UHGV virus genome: UHGV-0135791
Direction: 5' to 3' (one strand)
Origin: a virus
DNA: 28,473 nt
Shown here: piece by piece, positions 2,287 through 20,255 of the stretch
How the letters are laid out: each line of letters begins with the position of its first letter
How positions within the stretch are numbered: the first letter of the stretch is position 1
Notes under the pieces: model-generated
What the model saw: the letters and a program-made list of their open reading frames with translations, nothing else
What the model was told of the DNA's origin: nothing
The model's database searches: none
Translations under genes and position numbers: made by a program

Positions 2287-2595
2287 TTGGATAAATTTAC
2301 TGAAACAGTAACGGGGTGGCTTCTCGCTGCCGCTCTGGCTGGTGGGGTCATCGGACTACGACAACATAAGTCCGTTATTTCTGGCCCTATCGACGGATTC
2401 TGCTTTATCGCAACCGGCTTCACCTGCGCCGTATTTGGCGCACCTCTCGCAGCTCAATGGTTTGGTATCACGGGCGACCGTGAAATCGCTGGCCTGGGCT
2501 TTATCATCGCTGTTCTCTGGATGCCTATCTATTCCCGTCTCTCCGGTATCGTCGCCGGAGAATACATCGCACGTCGAGGGGGTACAGATGAATGA
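2287..2595 (+). CDS. holin (putative, three predicted TMDs), TTG start
   Basis: 102 aa with three hydrophobic segments and a charged C-terminus; immediately upstream of the endolysin; no in-frame ATG near the 5' end. Confidence 0.6.
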   Translation: MDKFTETVTGWLLAAALAGGVIGLRQHKSVISGPIDGFCFIATGFTCAVFGAPLAAQWFGITGDREIAGLGFIIAVLWMPIYSRLSGIVAGEYIARRGGTDE

Positions 2596-2860
2596 GTTAT
2601 TCTGGTTCGGTGGTATGCTGGCAATCGGAGGCACATCGCTGTTTAATGTATACCATCCCAGCGTTGACGACGGGTTATTTGGTCGCGTGCTCTATATCCT
2701 GACCGCTATCATCTGCGCTGCCGGTTGTATCCACCTGTTACAAGGCAGCATGTCACCAACGTTGCCTGAGACATTAATCACATTAGTTGCGCTGCGCCAG
2801 ATTCGCCAGGCGTGGCTGTCATACGGAGGATACAAGCGTGTCTCGAAATATTTCAGATAA
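2588..2860 (+). CDS. second lysis-cassette membrane protein (holin or antiholin-like), 90 aa
   Basis: ATG 2588 overlaps the holin stop; two hydrophobic helices; ends 22 nt into the endolysin gene. Confidence 0.5.
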   Translation: MNELFWFGGMLAIGGTSLFNVYHPSVDDGLFGRVLYILTAIICAAGCIHLLQGSMSPTLPETLITLVALRQIRQAWLSYGGYKRVSKYFR

Positions 2861-3326
2861 TGGATTGCATTTCACCGCCGCGTTCGAGGGGTTCCGAGGA
2901 ACTGCATATCGTGCTACTCCGAACGAGAAGTACCTGACTATTGGCTACGGGCATTACGGGCCAGACGTAACCCCAGGTAAGACCATCACACCAGGACAGG
3001 GCTTGTTGTTACTGAATCGCGATATGGCTAAGGCCGTAGCTGCGGTTGACGCAGCAGCCCACCATTCTCTCACGCAGGCACAGTTCGACGCTGTGTGCGA
3101 CCTGGTGTATAACGCAGGTGCTGGCGTGATTGCGGCTACTACAGGCACGGGTGAGGCGCTGCGCTCCGGCGATGTTGCGACGCTGCGTGCCAAGCTGGCG
3201 CTGTTCATCAACCAGAACGGCAAACCGCTCCTCGGCCTGCGTCGCCGCACGGCTGGTCGCCTGGCGCTGTTCGACGGTAAACCGTGGCAAGAGGCAGAGG
3301 CTATTGGGCGCGCGGTGAAAGGTTGA
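2838..3326 (+). CDS. endolysin, GH24 (T4/P22 gp19-type) lysozyme
   Basis: GTG start 7 nt after ACGGAGGA; translation has the P22 gp19-like pattern (ISDNG..., IGYGH, QAQFDAVCDLVYNAG, LGLRRRTAGRLALF), matched from memory. Confidence 0.8.
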   Translation: MSRNISDNGLHFTAAFEGFRGTAYRATPNEKYLTIGYGHYGPDVTPGKTITPGQGLLLLNRDMAKAVAAVDAAAHHSLTQAQFDAVCDLVYNAGAGVIAATTGTGEALRSGDVATLRAKLALFINQNGKPLLGLRRRTAGRLALFDGKPWQEAEAIGRAVKG

Positions 3327-3582: not shown

Positions 3583-3732
3583 ATGAAAATCACAGATAAA
3601 GAAGCATTCGAAGACGCGCAACTGATGGCACGCATCGCCGTTAGCAACCTTGGCGGAAGCATTCCTGCGGATTCGTTCTGGGCGGCAGCGATGAAGGCAC
3701 TGAAAGAAGCTTATGCAGGAGAGAAGAAATGA
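3583..3732 (+). CDS. small hypothetical protein, 49 aa
   Basis: AAGGAG upstream of ATG 3583; below track cutoff. Confidence 0.4.
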
Positions 3733-3887
3733 GCGAACAAGGCCCGGTAAGCCAGCCATTACGAGTAGGCCGTAAAGTCAGCCACACCCCGTTCCCGCCA
3801 CGCGAGGAACTGTTGAAACGTAACAGTTTCCCCGGGCCGGACAGGAACAAGTATCTCAATCGCATGTGGGGAGAGCGTAAAGAATGA
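3729..3887 (+). CDS. small hypothetical protein, 52 aa
   Basis: ATGA overlap with upstream gene; AGGAGAG RBS; below track cutoff. Confidence 0.4.
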   Translation: MSEQGPVSQPLRVGRKVSHTPFPPREELLKRNSFPGPDRNKYLNRMWGERKE

Positions 3888-4108
3888 CTGACCGCGACTA
3901 CGAAAAGATGATGGTAGAGGCCGTTAACGGCGGCGTAGACATTAGCCACGTTATGCACGTCCTGAATACTAAAATAGCGGTAGCCGAGCAAATGGTTGAG
4001 TCGCTTTACGAGACACGCCGTGAACTGATTAACCGCTTCAACCTGAACAAGGGTGGCACCAATGCCATCGACGCCGGCAAAATCTCAGGCGTGAAGCTGG
4101 AGGATTAA
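3884..4108 (+). CDS. hypothetical protein, 74 aa
   Basis: Track ORF; ATGA overlap with upstream gene; GGAGAG RBS. Confidence 0.55.
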   Translation: MTDRDYEKMMVEAVNGGVDISHVMHVLNTKIAVAEQMVESLYETRRELINRFNLNKGGTNAIDAGKISGVKLED

Positions 4109-8744: not shown

Positions 8745-8767
8745 AGCCCCGAAAGGGGCTTTCTTAT
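8745..8767 (+). terminator. rho-independent terminator after portal gene
   Basis: AGCCCC-GAAA-GGGGCT hairpin followed by TTCTTAT. Confidence 0.55.
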
Positions 8768-8803
8768 AGTATGCTATTAACTTTAGCGCCACAGGGTTTA
8801 TCT

Positions 8804-9847
8804 ATGAGCTTACTTACATCTCTGATCAGCCATCAGATATGGCTACAACGCACCGCATCCGGTGAAGTGAAAGACCTTGCGCCGTTCATTCAGGAGATGC
8901 GCGACGAAATCAAACGACAGGTGCTGTTGTTCGGCGACGACGGGAGAAGCACCGCGCGACTGAATAAACTGTTACGCGACCTCGAAGAAGCACTGACAGG
9001 GCTTACTGGTGGCTGGCAAACGAAGCTGACAGAAGACCTTAAGGAGCTGGCGGCGTATGAGGCTGAGTGGAATGTGAAGACACTCACGGCTAACGTTAAT
9101 GCGGAATTTGTCACTCCGACCGCTGAGCAGGTGTGGTCTGCCGCAGTGTTTCAACCGCTGGCGTTAAGCGACAAGCCCGTTGATTTCACGAAGCTGATGG
9201 AAGGCTGGGGCGAAACAGAAGTTGCTCGCCTTGTAACCGGCGTTAAGATGGGTTTCGTACAAGGACAAACCACACGGCAGATTGCTAAGAATGTGGTGGG
9301 TGCTGGTGGGCTGGCTGACATCTCTGAACGCAACGCCGCTACGGTAATCCGCACTGCATTATCCCATGTATCGAACGAAGCCCGTAACGAGACGTACCGC
9401 CAGAACGATGACATCATCGAGAAATACGAATGGGTATCAACGCTGGACAGCCGTACCAGCACGATTTGCAGAGCCAGAGACGGAATGACGTGGGAAATCG
9501 GTAAAGGGCCAATGCCTCCAGCCCATCCGAATTGTAGGTCGTGTACAGCGCCCGTAATCAGTTCAGAGTTCGACTTCCTCGATAAAGGAGCGAAACGTGC
9601 AGCTAAGGGCGCGGACGGCGGTACTCAGGTAAGCGCAGACACCACCTACTACGAGTTCCTGAAACAACAACCGGCATGGTTTCAGGATGAAGCACTCGGT
9701 CCTGTTCGCGGTAAGATTTTCCGCAACAGCGGTATATCGCCGGAAGAGTTTCGCGTAATATCTGTAGATGGTTTCGGGAATCCGCTCACGCTTAAGCAGA
9801 TGGCGGAACTCGATAAACGTGTTGCTGATTATCTGAAAGGGGAATAA
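8804..9847 (+). CDS. head morphogenesis protein, Mu F / SPP1 gp7-like
   Basis: Motif TSTICRARDGMTWEIGKGPMPPAHPNCRSC typical of the Mu F-like minor head protein family; start may be 8771 or 8804 in the same frame. Confidence 0.75.
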   Translation: MSLLTSLISHQIWLQRTASGEVKDLAPFIQEMRDEIKRQVLLFGDDGRSTARLNKLLRDLEEALTGLTGGWQTKLTEDLKELAAYEAEWNVKTLTANVNAEFVTPTAEQVWSAAVFQPLALSDKPVDFTKLMEGWGETEVARLVTGVKMGFVQGQTTRQIAKNVVGAGGLADISERNAATVIRTALSHVSNEARNETYRQNDDIIEKYEWVSTLDSRTSTICRARDGMTWEIGKGPMPPAHPNCRSCTAPVISSEFDFLDKGAKRAAKGADGGTQVSADTTYYEFLKQQPAWFQDEALGPVRGKIFRNSGISPEEFRVISVDGFGNPLTLKQMAELDKRVADYLKGE

Positions 9848-10161
9848 TGATGGGCTTTTTCAAAGTAACTGATGTGCCGTCGCGTCGCGTAGTCCAGTAC
9901 GCCCGCGTGTCTGGCTCTGACGAGAACGTGGTGTTTATCGAAGATGAAAGTGTACTTGGTACACCTGTAGACGATATGCCGTTTGCGTATAAAACCGGTA
10001 TTGCGCTACCGGCGGCGGGTATGCTTTACGAGATTCCGTATCTGGCGGACGCTGGTGATGTGTATTTCTCTGCACAACCGCAGAACACCGAACTGGCAGA
10101 CGGCAGCGCAACTATCACTGTCGAGGTTAAGGCAGGCAAAGCGCCGTATACTCTGACCTAG
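9847..10161 (+). CDS. Ig-like-domain protein, truncated by an in-frame amber codon
   Basis: ATG 9847 after AAAGGGGA; ORF ends at TAG 10159-10161 inside an Ig-like fold (APYTLT*YKDGKEV). Confidence 0.6.
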   Translation: MMGFFKVTDVPSRRVVQYARVSGSDENVVFIEDESVLGTPVDDMPFAYKTGIALPAAGMLYEIPYLADAGDVYFSAQPQNTELADGSATITVEVKAGKAPYTLT

Positions 10162-10311: not shown

Positions 10312-10342
10312 AAGGCCCCGTTATGGGGCCTTAGTTTTATTT
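10312..10342. terminator. bidirectional rho-independent terminator
   Basis: AAGGCCCC-GTTAT-GGGGCCTT hairpin with T-rich flanks on both strands, between convergent genes. Confidence 0.7.
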
Positions 10343-10858
10343 AAATCGCGCTGGCATTAGCACCATAAATGCAGTGTTTGAAAACGATATTTTGCATCCT
10401 CTGGTTTGGTCCTGGAAATCGAAACGAGCAATTTCATTTTTGTACGCCTTAGAAATCTTGTGCGCGTCTGCCAAGTAGGGCATGGCGAATCCTATGCTAT
10501 CAACTGCCCCCGGCGTGATGTGCGCCACACGTCGCCAGTCAGGAAATTTTCCGTCTACAACATCCACCGGAAGTGTACATATAAGCGCACAACTATCATC
10601 ATAGAAAGAAACACTGCTGATGTCATGGTCTACTTCCGCGTAGTTAAATTTAGAAGGCTCTCTCCCTTTTATGTCTATGAGAACCCCATTCTCAACGTTT
10701 GTCTTAACGTTGTCGCAGAACAATCTACGACCGTCCGTAGACACTATCAATCCTTCCGGGTCTATGTAAAAAGCATTAAAATAATAGCGCACATCATTTT
10801 TAGCTCTGCATATTTTTGCCCCTATATACGCAGGGAAAGTAATTACTGTAGTAACCAT
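10337..10858 (-). CDS. truncated DnaN (beta sliding clamp) homolog, domain II-like, 173 aa
   Basis: Segments [38 protein letters not shown] and C-terminal [11 protein letters not shown] parallel E. coli DnaN [45 protein letters not shown] and AAYVVMPMRL (from memory). Own promoter, GAGGAGGAG RBS, terminator; AT-rich relative to flanks. Confidence 0.55.
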   Translation of the reverse strand: [173 protein letters not shown]

Positions 10859-10915: not shown

Positions 10916-10969
10916 ACTATTTGTTTACGTATTCCAGTTATTCCGCTCAATTGTAAATGTTGGAATAAA

Positions 10970-10981
10970 CTATTCGAATAG
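10970..10981. promoter_or_regulatory. perfect 12-bp palindrome CTATTCGAATAG, candidate operator
   Basis: Abuts the -35 of a rightward promoter-like site; half-site GAATAG/CTATTC also occurs within the conserved promoter block. Confidence 0.35.
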
Positions 10982-11010
10982 TTGACTTTTCACTAAAAAT
11001 ATGCTAAGCT
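10982..11010 (+). promoter_or_regulatory. possible rightward promoter, TTGACT-N17-TAAGCT
   Basis: Good -35 but weak -10. Confidence 0.3.
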
Positions 11011-11234
11011 CCACCTGAGCTTGTGAAGTATGAACAAGCGACCGCGGCGCGGGCAGGTAACGGAGCGGGACGTAAGTCCTGAGTGTAGTTACGCTGACGC
11101 GTTCGGAAGGGCCATACTCTATTGCTTGTGTAAAAAGTAACTGGTTTACTGAGATTACGCCGTTTCTATGTTTAAATGATAAGAACTAGCGCCCCGCTTT
11201 ATGGCGGGGCTTTACTTATCGAGAAAGGAGAAAC

Positions 11235-11621
11235 ATGAATCTTAAAGCAACTGTCGTAGCAGGAGCATGTTTCATCATCCTGGCCTACGCACACGGCATC
11301 TATCAGTATCGCAGCGGCTGGAACGAAGGCCGGGAGAATCTCGTTTCGCAGCAACAGCAGAAAGCGCAGGCTGAGTTAGCGAAGAAAACACAACGGCAGC
11401 AGCAGGAAGAATCAAAGGCCGCCGCTGCTGACAACGAAGGCAAGACGAAATCAGAGGTGATTACCCGTGAAGTCGTTAAGTACATTAAAACGCCTGGTCG
11501 CAGCGTGTGCACTTTTGACCCTGAGCGCGTGCAGCTCAAGTCCCGCGCCGTCGCAAACGCCAATTCCATCCCCGGATATGACGATGATGCAGCCGCCGTG
11601 CAAACTGGCGCCGCCAAGTAA
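11235..11621 (+). CDS. Rz: i-spanin (Rz-like)
   Basis: N-terminal TMD (VVAGACFIILAYAHGIY) followed by a Gln/Ala/Lys-rich periplasmic region; strong RBS AAAGGAGA; contains the start of an overlapping lipoprotein gene. Confidence 0.7.
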   Translation: MNLKATVVAGACFIILAYAHGIYQYRSGWNEGRENLVSQQQQKAQAELAKKTQRQQQEESKAAAADNEGKTKSEVITREVVKYIKTPGRSVCTFDPERVQLKSRAVANANSIPGYDDDAAAVQTGAAK

Positions 11622-11730
11622 CGACGCCGACGGGGATTTGGCTATCGACGTTCAGAATGCAGAATGTGCGCGGCAACTGAGACTGAAAGTGTTCATGTTG
11701 CAGGATTATGTGAGGAATATTCTGGAATAG
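11467..11730 (+). CDS. Rz1: o-spanin (Rz1-like outer membrane lipoprotein)
   Basis: GTG start after GAGGTGA, in the +1 frame inside Rz; signal peptide with lipobox LSAC; Pro-rich mature region; extends 109 nt past the Rz stop. Confidence 0.65.
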   Translation: MKSLSTLKRLVAACALLTLSACSSSPAPSQTPIPSPDMTMMQPPCKLAPPSNDADGDLAIDVQNAECARQLRLKVFMLQDYVRNILE

Positions 11731-11812
11731 TTGCCTTGCAGGTTGGAATAATTTATTCTTGACATGTAAATCCGGGTGGCCCGGGTTCCAACGTCCAGGG
11801 GACATACTGACT

Positions 11813-12514
11813 ATGAATCGTTTTTTACGTTATCCGTTCCAGGAAGAAGCTGGGGCAGAAGATAAAGCTGGCGGCGGTGACGCGCCGAAAATGTACACAG
11901 CTGAAGAAGTGCGGGCGCTGATTGAGAAAGAAGTTGCCGGGCTTAAGGCCAATCAGGAAGCATTGCTGGCGGAGAAGAAAGAAGCCGCCCGCAAAGCAAA
12001 AGAGGCCGAAGAAGAACGACAGCGCGCACACCAGGAGGCGTTAAAAGCCGCCGGTAAGATGGACGAGTTCGAAAAGACGATTCGTAGCCAGTATGACCCG
12101 GTGTTAGCCGAGAAAGATGGTCGCATCTCCAGAATGGCAGAGCGCATCCTCGGCAGCGAACGTAAAGCGGTGTTAGGCTCTTTCGCGGGTGACTTTATTA
12201 CCCCGGAAGCAGTAGACATTCTTGCTCCGTTCGTTAAGACTGAGTTCGAAGGTGATGATGTGGTTACTAAGTTTGTCGGCGCAGACGGTAACGTAATCAC
12301 GACTGACCCGGAACAGTTCCGCAAATACCTGCGCGAACACAAAGCGTTTTCGCATTTGATTAAAGCAAATGCAGCTTCCGGCGGCGGGGCTTCCGGTGGC
12401 AAAGGCGGCGGGGCCGCACCAGCGTTTAAAGACATGAGTGAAGCGGAGCGTTTAGCTCTGTACAAATCGAACCCTGCCGAATTTGAACGGCAACTTAAAG
12501 CCCTGAGGAAATAA
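11813..12514 (+). CDS. scaffolding protein (putative)
   Basis: Ala/Glu/Lys-rich, helix-prone, about 234 aa, immediately upstream of the major capsid gene; start could also be 11759 or 11894. Confidence 0.65.
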   Translation: MNRFLRYPFQEEAGAEDKAGGGDAPKMYTAEEVRALIEKEVAGLKANQEALLAEKKEAARKAKEAEEERQRAHQEALKAAGKMDEFEKTIRSQYDPVLAEKDGRISRMAERILGSERKAVLGSFAGDFITPEAVDILAPFVKTEFEGDDVVTKFVGADGNVITTDPEQFRKYLREHKAFSHLIKANAASGGGASGGKGGGAAPAFKDMSEAERLALYKSNPAEFERQLKALRK

Positions 12515-12516
12515 TA

Positions 12517-13560
12517 ATGGCAATTACCACTATCGGCGATATCGTAACTGGCAACATCCCGGTCCTGGCGTCTTACATGACCGAGGACCCGGTGGAAAAA
12601 ACCGCGTTCTTCCAGTCCGGCATTCTGACCCCGACCCCGTACGCTGCCGAGATTGCTCGCGGCCCGTCCAACATCGCCAACATCCCTTTCTGGAAAGCGA
12701 TTGATACATCTATCGAGCCGAACTACTCGAACGATGTATACCAGGATATCGCCACCCCGCGTAACGTTCAGACCGGTGAGATGATGGCGCGCGTTGCGTA
12801 CCTGAACGAAGGTTTTGGCCAGGCCGACCTTACCGTCGAACTGACCAGCCAGAACCCGCTGCAATCCGTGGCTTCCCGTCTGGATAACTTCTGGCAGCGC
12901 CAGGCACAACGCCGTCTGATTGCTACTGCGCTCGGTCTGTACAACGACAACGTAGCCGCTACCGATGAATACCATACGCAGAACGATATGGTTGTCGACG
13001 TGTCTGCTTCTCTGGGCTTCGACGCAGGCGCATTCATCGACGCTACCCAGACTATGGGCGATGCTCTGATGGGCAACGGTGGCGAGGTGCTGGGTGCTAT
13101 CGCTATGCACAGCTTCGTTTATGCGCAGGCGCGTAAGCAGCAGCTTATTGACTTCATCAAAGACGCTGACAACGACACCTTGTTCGCCACCTACCAGGGC
13201 TACCGTGTGATTGTTGACGACAGCATGACCGTAGTCGGCTCCGGCGGCAGCCGCAAGTTCATCTCCATCATCTTCGGCAACGGCGCTATCGGTTACGGTG
13301 AAGGCAACCCGTCCAACCCGCTGGAATACGAGCGCGAAGCGTCTCGCGGTAATGGTGGTGGTGTAGAAACCCTGTGGTCCCGTAAGACCTGGCTGCTGCA
13401 CCCACTGGGCTACAGCTTCACCAGCGCGGTAATCACCGGCAACGGCACCGAGACTGTCGCACGTTCTGCGTCCTGGCAGGACCTGGCGAACGCCTCCAAC
13501 TGGAGCCGTGTGGTTGAGCGTAAGCATGTACCGATTGCCTTCCTGGTAACTGGTGCTTAA
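12517..13560 (+). CDS. major capsid protein (putative)
   Basis: 347 aa after the scaffold; RBS GAGGAAA; followed by a strong terminator, as expected for a highly expressed structural gene. Confidence 0.75.
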   Translation: MAITTIGDIVTGNIPVLASYMTEDPVEKTAFFQSGILTPTPYAAEIARGPSNIANIPFWKAIDTSIEPNYSNDVYQDIATPRNVQTGEMMARVAYLNEGFGQADLTVELTSQNPLQSVASRLDNFWQRQAQRRLIATALGLYNDNVAATDEYHTQNDMVVDVSASLGFDAGAFIDATQTMGDALMGNGGEVLGAIAMHSFVYAQARKQQLIDFIKDADNDTLFATYQGYRVIVDDSMTVVGSGGSRKFISIIFGNGAIGYGEGNPSNPLEYEREASRGNGGGVETLWSRKTWLLHPLGYSFTSAVITGNGTETVARSASWQDLANASNWSRVVERKHVPIAFLVTGA

Positions 13561-13576
13561 GGTTAATATATAATCG

Positions 13577-13604
13577 AGAGGGACTTCGGTCCCTCTTTTC
13601 ATTT
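13577..13604 (+). terminator. rho-independent terminator after capsid gene
   Basis: AGAGGGAC-TTCG-GTCCCTCT hairpin followed by TTTCATTT. Confidence 0.75.
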
Positions 13605-18085: not shown

Positions 18086-18314
18086 ACTCATCAATATTAC
18101 TCCTGTACTCCCGTAACTTCTCCAGGCTTTCGATTGCTTCTGCCAAGTCGGTTCCCGTGTCTTTGTGCCCGCGAAGGCCCATACACAATAGCTTCTTCAA
18201 CGCGTGCTGTAGCGCAGGGTCGCGTATATCGAAGGCGCGGAGAACATCGTAAACGTCTACTGTCATAGTGCTGCCGTGAATGTTTGTCATTGTGCGGTTG
18301 TATTTTGAAGTCAT
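18084..18314 (-). CDS. DUF3310-like small phage protein, 76 aa
   Basis: Motif PALQHALKKLLCMGLRGHKD...DLAEAIESLEKL matches the A.KYL.R.G.K...DL.KA..YL pattern recalled for DUF3310. Confidence 0.5.
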   Translation of the reverse strand: MTSKYNRTMTNIHGSTMTVDVYDVLRAFDIRDPALQHALKKLLCMGLRGHKDTGTDLAEAIESLEKLREYRSNIDE

Positions 18315-19441
18315 CCCAGCATCTCCGGTGAAATAGTTAAACGTGCGACCTCGCCGTATTCAGCGCTATAAGTAATTACGTTTGCACTACGGCCTGACAT
18401 CCATCCGCCGCGCGAGGCGTAGGCGTCTTTAGCCGCTAAGGTGCGGTGTTGCTCAACAACCATGTTACGGCTTTCTACAATCTTCTGGTGGTGCAGGTGA
18501 CCCACGTGGGCATAACTGTAGACACTCTCGCCGAACGCTTTACGGAACTTGGCAATCATTACTGGCTCAATAGCGTCGAATCGTGCTTTATGCCCGTGAT
18601 GGAAGAACAGTGTCGTTTTGCCGTGTTGCACCATCTTGTAAACATCCGGTGACGTATCGACAATCACTCGGCTGTCGTTTGAGTATAAAGTCGTGAACAT
18701 TTCCGCCAGCCATACAGACCCTACAGGGTCGTGGTTCCCCTGCACGATAAGCAAGCGAACGGTTTTATGTTTAACCAGCGCCATATCTACAACACGGCGG
18801 ACCATACGAATCATGTAGCGTACAAGTTTCTGATAGCGCGTGTCAGCGTCCAACACATGACGTGACTCAGGTGTAACCGCGTCCAGACTATCGAAGTGTG
18901 CGAAGTCGCCCAGCAGGTTAATAACTCCTGTCCCGGCATCCGGTGCTTTCTGGAATGCCGCATCGAACCAGCGGGAGAACAGGTCTTCCGCAATCTTCAT
19001 GTCCCAGTCGTCGCCGCTCTCGTCGGCCCATGCCAGCATACCGAGATGGAAATCGGATACCGTGTAAAGATTGAGTAGCTTGTCGTCGCGTTTAGCGCGA
19101 ACGGCTTTAACAGGTGCAACGGGTGTAATCTCTGACCTCATGCCTTCGATTACGGCTTTCATCAACTCTATCTGACGTTCGGCGTCAGTATCGGTCTTAA
19201 CCCATTGCAACTTAGTGTTGCCGAACTCGTCCACAAGTGACGACGTGCCTTTAATTTTGTAGCCGTCCGGGACAAGGTGGCTAACGTCGCGCCCGTGGCC
19301 TACGCCTTTCTTAGCCAGCTTCGCTTTACGGATGCGAATAACGCGGTCTGAGATGCCATATTTACGGGCTATATCGATAGTTTTAACTCCGGCGTTCAAT
19401 TCTTCCTGTAACTGTTCGTCGGTTATTTTCTTCCCGGCCAT
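18311..19441 (-). CDS. N-terminal HTH domain fused to a calcineurin/Mre11-like metallophosphoesterase, 376 aa
   Basis: HTH-like LNAGVKTIDIARKYGISDRVIRIRK; phosphoesterase motifs VSDFHLG, LLGDFAHFD, QGNHD, FHHGH and HVGHLHH in canonical order. Confidence 0.75.
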   Translation of the reverse strand: MAGKKITDEQLQEELNAGVKTIDIARKYGISDRVIRIRKAKLAKKGVGHGRDVSHLVPDGYKIKGTSSLVDEFGNTKLQWVKTDTDAERQIELMKAVIEGMRSEITPVAPVKAVRAKRDDKLLNLYTVSDFHLGMLAWADESGDDWDMKIAEDLFSRWFDAAFQKAPDAGTGVINLLGDFAHFDSLDAVTPESRHVLDADTRYQKLVRYMIRMVRRVVDMALVKHKTVRLLIVQGNHDPVGSVWLAEMFTTLYSNDSRVIVDTSPDVYKMVQHGKTTLFFHHGHKARFDAIEPVMIAKFRKAFGESVYSYAHVGHLHHQKIVESRNMVVEQHRTLAAKDAYASRGGWMSGRSANVITYSAEYGEVARLTISPEMLG

Positions 19442-19838: not shown

Positions 19839-20255
19839 ATGAAACTTTCTGATTTTTATTTCGAAGAGAAAGCACTGGTAGGTAAGAAGATGCCGATTCT
19901 CCTGCCGAATGGTGAAGACTCAGGGGAGTGGCTTAACGTTGTAAGCCCTGATGCGGATGCCGCCGTTAAAGCGGGGCGTGCTTTCATTATTGCGTACCGT
20001 CGCGGGTTGGCGCGTTTCGAAGAACTGGAAAAAGCCGCCAAAGAATCCGGCGACTATACTGAATATAACCTGGCTGTTAACGAGCTGGCGGAAGACCTCA
20101 ACCGGCAACTTGCAGCAGAAGTCGTAAACGGCTGGAGCTTTGATGAGCCTTTCTCTAAGGAAGCGTTTAACAAGTTGCTCGACCAGTTCAAGGCATTAGG
20201 CACACAGGTAGCCGCGTTCCATAACGCTGAGCGCAAAGCATTACAGGAAAAGTAG
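19839..20255 (+). CDS. tail assembly chaperone (lambda G-like)
   Basis: 138 aa acidic protein just upstream of the tape measure gene; ends ...CAG GAA AAG TAG with the -1 frame open from 20231. Confidence 0.6.
   Translation: MKLSDFYFEEKALVGKKMPILLPNGEDSGEWLNVVSPDADAAVKAGRAFIIAYRRGLARFEELEKAAKESGDYTEYNLAVNELAEDLNRQLAAEVVNGWSFDEPFSKEAFNKLLDQFKALGTQVAAFHNAERKALQEK

Follow-up and report, generated by a model that had tools for sequence, protein, structure and literature searches.

Spanins disrupt the outer membrane of the host when phage infection ends. Spanin complexes accumulate before lysis while restrained by intact peptidoglycan, and it is the holin, rather than transcription of the spanin genes, that determines when the cell lyses. 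In lambda, Rz1 lies wholly inside Rz, and a single late operon carries S and R with the pair immediately after them. The LysB/LysC pair of P2 is of the overlapped type and sits inside the lysis gene cluster. T4 provides a precedent for an unlinked pair, as its PseT.3/PseT.2 spanin genes lie apart from t and e (PMC6139136). Within the overlapped class, the 'Jersey' inner-membrane spanin (i-spanin) and outer-membrane spanin (o-spanin) families are the first listed and the largest, with 27 members that include K1G, K1H, and K1ind1-3 as well as Jersey and SETP3, and they are characterized by a 155-bp overlap and by conserved Cys45 and Cys67 (Kongari et al. 2018, PMC6139136). Here, we describe positions 11235-11730 of UHGV virus genome UHGV-0135791, a stretch of 28,473 nt that we refer to as the window and on which all positions are numbered. 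On the evidence of the sequence, this segment very probably encodes the two-component spanin of a Kagunavirus phage, which belongs to the Jersey families, has the overlapped architecture, and would be made with the late head proteins from a unit separate from the holin and endolysin genes, with lysis timed by the holin.

The window derives from a Kagunavirus (Guernseyvirinae), and the region exhibits 95%–96% DNA identity to many Kagunavirus genomes (RP180, Bas70, K1ind1, and Golestan among them). The 1.2-kb region matched 344 records, and the cassette matched 485 in a more sensitive search, mostly Salmonella phages at Jersey-like identity (60%–80%). At the protein level, identity was 64%–98% to 47 IMG/VR relatives whose matches cover most of the length, with Jersey-type phages in this set. 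The i-spanin matched the PHROG profile phrog_2536 at 4.5e-57 (residues 1-128 of a 129-position profile), and the o-spanin matched phrog_1267 at 3.3e-20 (residues 9-86) and phrog_5672 at 2.7e-28 (residues 41-87), all three being annotated as 'Rz-like spanin'. Assignment to the Jersey families follows from 96% DNA identity to the listed member K1ind1, the full-length phrog_2536 match, and the 155-nt overlap. The pair also has in common with these families an o-spanin in the +1 frame, Cys45 and Cys67, product lengths of 128 and 87 amino acids, and a slot between the head decoration and scaffold genes. The differences amount to a few amino-acid substitutions, and the lipobox reads LSAC (Cys22) in the window where part of the genus has LASC (Cys23). 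The original prediction had named the two genes Rz and Rz1, and these identities are borne out by the PHROG spanin profiles, the conserved frames, and the lipobox.

Earlier records of close relatives are also consistent with this assignment. The records of K1ind1, Shelanagig, RP180, and Bas70 label the i-spanin gene spanin or i-spanin. In K1ind1 (GU196279), genes of 387 nt and 264 nt are both labeled 'putative spanin' with the note 'overlapping gene', and their coordinates relative to the gene start are the same as in the window. The curated record of Shelanagig likewise lists an i-spanin and an o-spanin of 387 nt and 264 nt. None of this is new: for this phage group, the literature already covers the pair and its family, the 155-nt overlap, and the location at a distance from the remaining lysis genes. 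The spanin pair adds nothing new to lysis biology, and the value of the finding lies mainly in annotation, namely the correct GTG start and lipobox of an o-spanin that many records shorten or omit.

The two genes lie on the same strand and have 155 nt in common, with the o-spanin gene offset by +1 and extending 109 nt past the i-spanin stop. The open reading frame (ORF) coordinates confirm every part of the arrangement that had been proposed, an Rz1 gene beginning at a GTG inside Rz in the +1 frame and overhanging its end by 109 nt. Each gene is preceded by a Shine-Dalgarno-like sequence, which for the i-spanin gene is AAGGAG at 11225-11230. The +1 frame opens at 11461, and GTG 11467 is the earliest start codon available to the o-spanin. 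Among 36 listed loci with GTG as the first +1-frame start at the position equivalent to that of the window, the Shine-Dalgarno and start region of the o-spanin, TCAGAGGTGATTACCC, is unchanged in 34, the remaining two (L001 and L008) being slicing artefacts.

Related loci were compared to determine whether both frames are maintained as coding sequence; the set consisted of 48 loci from IMG/VR and 4 from GenBank, with 46 cassettes of equal length (496 nt), 43 of them distinct. No stop codon occurs in the +1 frame across the 43 distinct cassettes, compared with 233 in the third frame within the overlap segment alone. Variability among the 43 relatives follows the codon positions of whichever protein is encoded: in the segment that is i-spanin only, it is highest at i-spanin codon position 3 (0.241 vs 0.112 and 0.087), and in the 3' tail past the i-spanin stop it is highest at o-spanin codon position 3 (0.254 vs 0.087 and 0.036). 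This tail is the most conserved protein segment and is under strong purifying selection. When the window copy is counted, start, stop, and overlap are identical in 35 of 51 related cassettes, and in most of the others the +1 frame opens further upstream with the equivalent codon retained internally. The lipobox persists in relatives as LSAC, LASC, LNGC, LSGC, or ITGC despite changes in the surrounding residues.

A natural variant separates the two genes almost completely. In the Kagunavirus-like contig IMGVR_UViG_3300045988_013393 (L040, locus 1501-2089), the i-spanin is shorter (118 amino acids) and overlaps a homologous o-spanin by 14 nt only. This o-spanin has its own signal peptide, the lipobox ITGC, both cysteines, and a C-terminus, LQDYVRNILE, identical to that of the window. 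By sequence, the contig represents a 'separated' arrangement within the same spanin family. Taken together, the codon-position signatures, the stop-free +1 frame, the persistent lipobox, and this stand-alone o-spanin show that both frames encode proteins and that chance does not account for the +1 ORF.

The same comparison bears on the alternative that the true o-spanin is a 47-amino-acid product beginning at ATG 11587, the upstream part of the +1 frame being non-coding. This start has been used in several GenBank records: in Bas70 (PQ850619; Bas70_0009) and phiWAO78-1 (MW331437; WAO781_gp11), the o-spanin begins at the equivalent ATG, measures 47-48 amino acids, and has lost its signal peptide. 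Moreover, phrog_5672 is a 47-position profile of the shortened form, and in RP180 (MK737937) the i-spanin is annotated while the o-spanin gene is omitted. However, a product of 47 amino acids carries neither signal peptide nor lipobox, without which it could not be delivered to the outer membrane, and the long frame is open in 43 of 43 distinct relatives with conserved Shine-Dalgarno, GTG, and lipobox Cys. The phrog_1267 alignment extends well upstream of residue 41, and the Shelanagig and K1ind1 records use the long form. It also counts against the short form that o-spanin starts are frequently mis-called (Kongari et al. 2018, PMC6139136). We regard the short product as extremely improbable; GTG 11467 is the right start and improves on many GenBank annotations.

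The predicted features of the two proteins are those of a two-component spanin. Residues 5-23 of the i-spanin form a hydrophobic segment preceded by K4, the best 19-residue Kyte-Doolittle window (1.72) begins at residue 5, and a single-sequence AlphaFold2 model places residues 3-63 in one long helix with a predicted local distance difference test (pLDDT) score of 77-89. Hydropathy and the modeled helix are thus consistent with a single N-terminal transmembrane segment and a periplasmic remainder. The remainder contains one cysteine, C92. For the o-spanin, the original prediction had proposed an LSAC lipobox, and assessment of the signal by rules agrees, with a charged n-region, a hydrophobic core of 10 residues, and a lipobox made up of L19-S20-A21-C22 (codon of Cys22, TGC, at 11530-11532). 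Ser, not Asp, occupies position +2, and by these rules the precursor would be processed by signal peptidase II and sorted to the outer membrane. The predicted mature protein has 66 residues, is rich in proline (9 residues), and contains Cys45 and Cys67. Cys92 of the i-spanin and Cys45 and Cys67 of the o-spanin are predicted to be available for intermolecular disulfides; their positions match the conserved ones in Kongari et al. 2018.

In predicted mechanism and topology, the pair resembles lambda Rz/Rz1: a type II inner-membrane protein, the periplasmic domain of which would be helical, is combined with a small, proline-rich outer-membrane lipoprotein encoded in the +1 frame, with cysteines in the periplasm. 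The two systems have no significant sequence similarity, and they differ in gene arrangement, as Rz1 is wholly embedded in Rz and it is the lambda pair that comes next to S and R. By analogy with lambda, each membrane would anchor one partner, the i-spanin in the inner and the lipidated o-spanin in the outer, and their periplasmic domains would meet through the mesh of the cell wall. The holin would free the soluble lysozyme endolysin, the wall would be degraded, and the spanin complexes would then fuse the two membranes and complete lysis. The timing of lysis would still be set by the holin.

Several points weigh against this interpretation. The C-terminal half of the i-spanin is poorly modeled (residues 68-128, pLDDT <50, AlphaFold2 single-sequence); two helices with a beta-containing linker have been predicted for this i-spanin subfamily (Kongari et al. 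2018, PMC6139136). Neither protein has a significant Pfam match to lambda Rz/Rz1 or P2 LysB/LysC. The Pfam family LysC (PF23793, Rz1-like lysis protein LysC) aligned with o-spanin residues 17-69 at an E-value of 0.012 and 16 bits, below the cut-off of 27, a score that does not support membership of the family. The likeness to P2 comprises the overlapped architecture and this weak sub-threshold match; a DUF2514 match was also sub-threshold (0.029). No experiment on any Guernseyvirinae spanin was found in the literature searched, and function is assigned from family features and homology to annotated proteins; a search for work on Jerseyvirinae Rz1 also found nothing. The promoter, leader function, and terminator activity discussed below are predictions from sequence. 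Finally, the lipoprotein signal was assessed by rules on the sequence and not by a trained predictor, and Cys14 (VAAC) formally matches the lipobox pattern [LVI][ASTVI][GAS]C as well, raising the alternative that Cys14 is lipidated in place of Cys22. With four or five hydrophobic residues between the charged n-region and Cys14, the core of such a signal peptide would be too short. Moreover, Cys14 is missing in Jersey-type homologues, while a cysteine is found at position 22 or 23 in nearly all relatives and at position 18 in the separated variant. Lying near the N-terminus and not being conserved, Cys14 was rejected as the lipidation site, and we consider its use highly improbable. The reading of the pair as a Jersey-type spanin with Cys22 lipidated is retained below, and the features of the region are listed in Table 1.

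Table 1. Features of the spanin locus and of related genes and signals in the window
Feature	Position	Strand	Details
Holin (first of two)	2287-2595	+	phrog_2359 7e-29; hydrophobic segments
Second holin or antiholin	2588-2860	+	Probable ATG 2588; phrog_2508 4.5e-32 on residues 83-172 (C-terminal 90) of ORF 2342-2860
Soluble (non-SAR) lysozyme-type endolysin	2838-3326	+	Probable GTG 2838; PF00959 1.9e-26, phrog_7 5.4e-39
Head morphogenesis gene	8771-9847		Upstream of spanins
Hoc-like head decoration gene	9847-10161		Upstream of spanins
Palindrome GGAATA-AAC-TATTC	10962-10975	.	Just 5' of -35 hexamer; candidate operator
Sigma-70-type promoter-like site	10982-11010	+	TTGACT, 17 nt, TGcTAAGCT (extended -10); nearest candidate 5' of spanins
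Conserved structured RNA leader (predicted)	11015-11126	+	Hairpin P1, then long interrupted stem-loop; overlaps 36-amino-acid ORF 11030-11140
GC-rich hairpin with weak T tract (TTTACTTAT)	11191-11210	+	24 nt 5' of i-spanin ATG; terminator scan
i-spanin (Rz-like) gene	11235-11621	+	ATG start, 128 amino acids
o-spanin Shine-Dalgarno GAGGTG	11454-11459	+	7 nt 5' of GTG
o-spanin (Rz1-like) precursor gene	11467-11730	+	GTG start, 87 amino acids, +1 frame of i-spanin gene
o-spanin lipoprotein signal peptide (predicted)	11467-11532	+	n-region MKSLSTLKR (+3), h-region LVAACALLTL (10 residues), lipobox LSAC
Palindrome GGAATA-ATT-TATTC, perfect	11745-11758	.	In 82-nt spacer from o-spanin stop to scaffold gene
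Scaffold gene	11813-12514		Downstream of spanins
Major head protein gene	12517-13560		Downstream of spanins

The split lysis system described in the original prediction, with holin and endolysin genes at 2287-3326 and spanins some 8 kb away between head and scaffold genes, is confirmed, the distance from the end of the endolysin gene to the i-spanin start being 7.9 kb. The endolysin has no N-terminal hydrophobic segment (best Kyte-Doolittle window 1.15, internal). The terminase and portal genes also lie upstream of the pair, and the intervening DNA contains two minus-strand genes (3641-3991 and 10337-10858) and plus-strand terminator-like sites at 8745-8760, 10312-10332, and 11191-11210. T4 differs in that its spanin genes are separated and not overlapped, are of another sequence family, and belong to a genome in which the holin and endolysin genes are themselves unclustered.

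In this position, the spanins are most likely expressed together with the abundant late head proteins, from a transcription unit separate from that of the holin and endolysin. This is suggested because the pair opens the coding part of a unit that starts with a promoter-like site, a leader, and a hairpin, and because in the terminator scan nothing separated the pair from the scaffold and capsid genes, the next predicted terminator being at 13576-13597. The promoter-like site matches the consensus hexamers at 8 of 12 positions, under the promoter-scan cut-off of 9. It is kept in 48 related loci, in which the n of the TGn motif varies (C, A, T, or G) and TG and TAAGCT or TACGCT are constant, and in these relatives it is followed by a conserved 200-nt leader and then by the GC hairpin. 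The hairpin stem is preserved by compensatory changes, reading GCCCTGC/CAGGGC in two relatives (L014 and L015) and GCCCGGC/CCGGGC in Jersey-type loci. It may be an intrinsic terminator, an attenuator, or a 5' stabilizing hairpin; the T tract that follows is weak and is poorer still in Jersey types, which makes a terminator function uncertain.

The leader between the promoter-like site and the hairpin overlaps a 36-amino-acid ORF, and this "gene" is better read as a conserved structured RNA leader, possibly a new one. The window contains a single match to a covariance model of the leader (R1), at 135.5 bits, and RP180 contains exactly two, the second at 38090-38202. In the model-based alignment, 92% of cells are paired vs 32%–44% in slid controls, and 10 pairs are changed on both sides vs 2-4 in the controls, although this alignment was fitted to the structure and its pairing counts lean towards it. 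None of 500 shuffles reached the observed score. Alignment with MAFFT and RNAalifold recovered part of the structure only, as unlike hairpins were misaligned; the model-based alignment took its place, and independent single-sequence folds served as a check. Four divergent classes, namely Kagunavirus copy 1, its variants, copy 2, and the Jersey type, fold independently to the same shape with differing helix sequences.

A real protein encoded by the ORF was considered and rejected, as natural variants are frameshifted or truncated to 9-22 amino acids while the RNA pairs are kept. The ATG of the ORF is absent in Jersey-type phages, and the 'AFGRAxLYC' stretch that it has in common with the Jersey-type ORF is explained by nucleotide conservation and not by protein. 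No Rfam family was found for the leader, either across the window at gathering thresholds or in a permissive search of 10940-11260, in which wcaG scored best (19.3 bits vs a gathering score of 42). By blastn, the leader is confined to Guernseyvirinae. A gapped-pattern scan of 185,579 bacterial and archaeal genomes gave 12 matches, of which 2 were real by the covariance model, both on phage-like contigs; the other 10 were rejected as chance GC-rich matches. The structured leader could matter more than the spanin pair, as a testable handle on late and lysis gene control in a common phage group made up of therapeutic coliphages and Salmonella phages.

The leader-plus-spanin block is flanked by perfect palindromes of the form GGAATA-N3-TATTC, which are preserved in both Kagunavirus and Jerseyvirus. 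The whole RP180 genome contains only three such sites, each at the start of a late structural gene block, and the palindromes may constitute an operator for a phage regulator. The 82-nt spacer that holds the downstream palindrome (11731-11812) is highly conserved across genera, and within it lies a hairpin, CCGGG-NGG-CCCGG, at 11772-11784, the first loop base of which is free to vary.

From the split arrangement, the original prediction had deduced that the final step of lysis is under a transcriptional control of its own. Placement in another predicted transcription unit, with its own promoter-like site, leader, and hairpin, agrees with part of this claim, but separate control itself is not supported, because spanins accumulate beforehand, held by the intact wall, and because a paralogous module stands at both operons in RP180. 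In this near-identical phage, a paralogous promoter-plus-leader module heads the plus-strand operon that runs through the holins and endolysin; the equivalent position maps about 1.1 kb before the first base of the window and beyond it. This suggests parallel rather than distinct control of the two halves of lysis.

It is possible, and we give it even odds, that separation from the holin and endolysin has no regulatory meaning at all, being a legacy of modular evolution in which the spanins ride with the head genes and both sets are expressed late enough. In the two genera sampled by the 485 records, Kagunavirus and Jerseyvirus, the pair has a fixed slot flanked by the decoration and scaffold genes, and in T4, too, the spanin genes are distant from t and e (PMC6139136). 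The module common to the holin/endolysin operon and the spanin unit of RP180 fits this explanation as well. Spanin action is gated by degradation of the wall, as is well established, so exact timing of synthesis would be unneeded. Contrarily, conservation is higher in the non-coding DNA that flanks the pair on either side than in the spanin coding sequence (in S103, for example, identity is 97.4% for the leader vs 78.8% for the cassette), and the palindromes, structured leader, and hairpin contained in these flanks argue for active regulation there.

A more specific form of regulation can be envisaged, in which the spanin pair is the first cistron behind an undescribed, Guernseyvirinae-specific promoter-plus-RNA module (10982-11126) and hairpin, with the cis-acting RNA serving as a shared switch by put-like antitermination or attenuation. 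The operon containing the holins and endolysin begins, in many of these phages, with a paralogous copy of the module. If this proposal is true, a single RNA-based switch would govern the major head genes together with the two parts of the split lysis system, and the leader would be a phage antiterminator or leader RNA of a new class, now mis-annotated as a protein of 36-40 amino acids. We consider the proposal rather unlikely. In the HK022 immunity region (27600-30100), which we take to be the location of putL and putR, model R1 found nothing with filters off (best 6.9 bits), and in the absence of similarity to putL and putR the leader was rejected as a put homologue. A literature search on Guernseyvirinae antitermination also found nothing. 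The HK022 put RNAs are alike in having two stem-loops directly 3' of a sigma-70 promoter, in occurring in up to two paralogous copies per genome, and in heading long operons with terminator-like hairpins, but they measure about 70 nt compared with about 95-110 nt for the leader (PMC9378689).

Further observations concern the neighboring genes. The Hoc-like decoration gene ends at a TAG (10159-10161) where RP180 has TGG, and the next 49 codons, to 10308, are in frame and conserved; an amber mutation, a natural truncation, and a sequencing error are all candidate explanations. Between this gene and the spanin leader, the minus-strand gene at 10337-10858 matches phrog_3007 (RusA-like Holliday junction resolvase, 7e-36), and its slot is variable, with RP180 and Bas70 holding different small genes there. 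A scan of the window for tRNA and tmRNA genes found none. Downstream, the plus strand at 19750-19814 matches the Rfam int-alpA RNA (RF02996) at 36.7 bits, just over the gathering score of 35.8. This match lies between a minus-strand gene at 18311-19441, the RP180 homologue of which is annotated as a calcineurin-like phosphoesterase, and a plus-strand gene at 19839-20255, annotated in Bas70 as a tail assembly chaperone.

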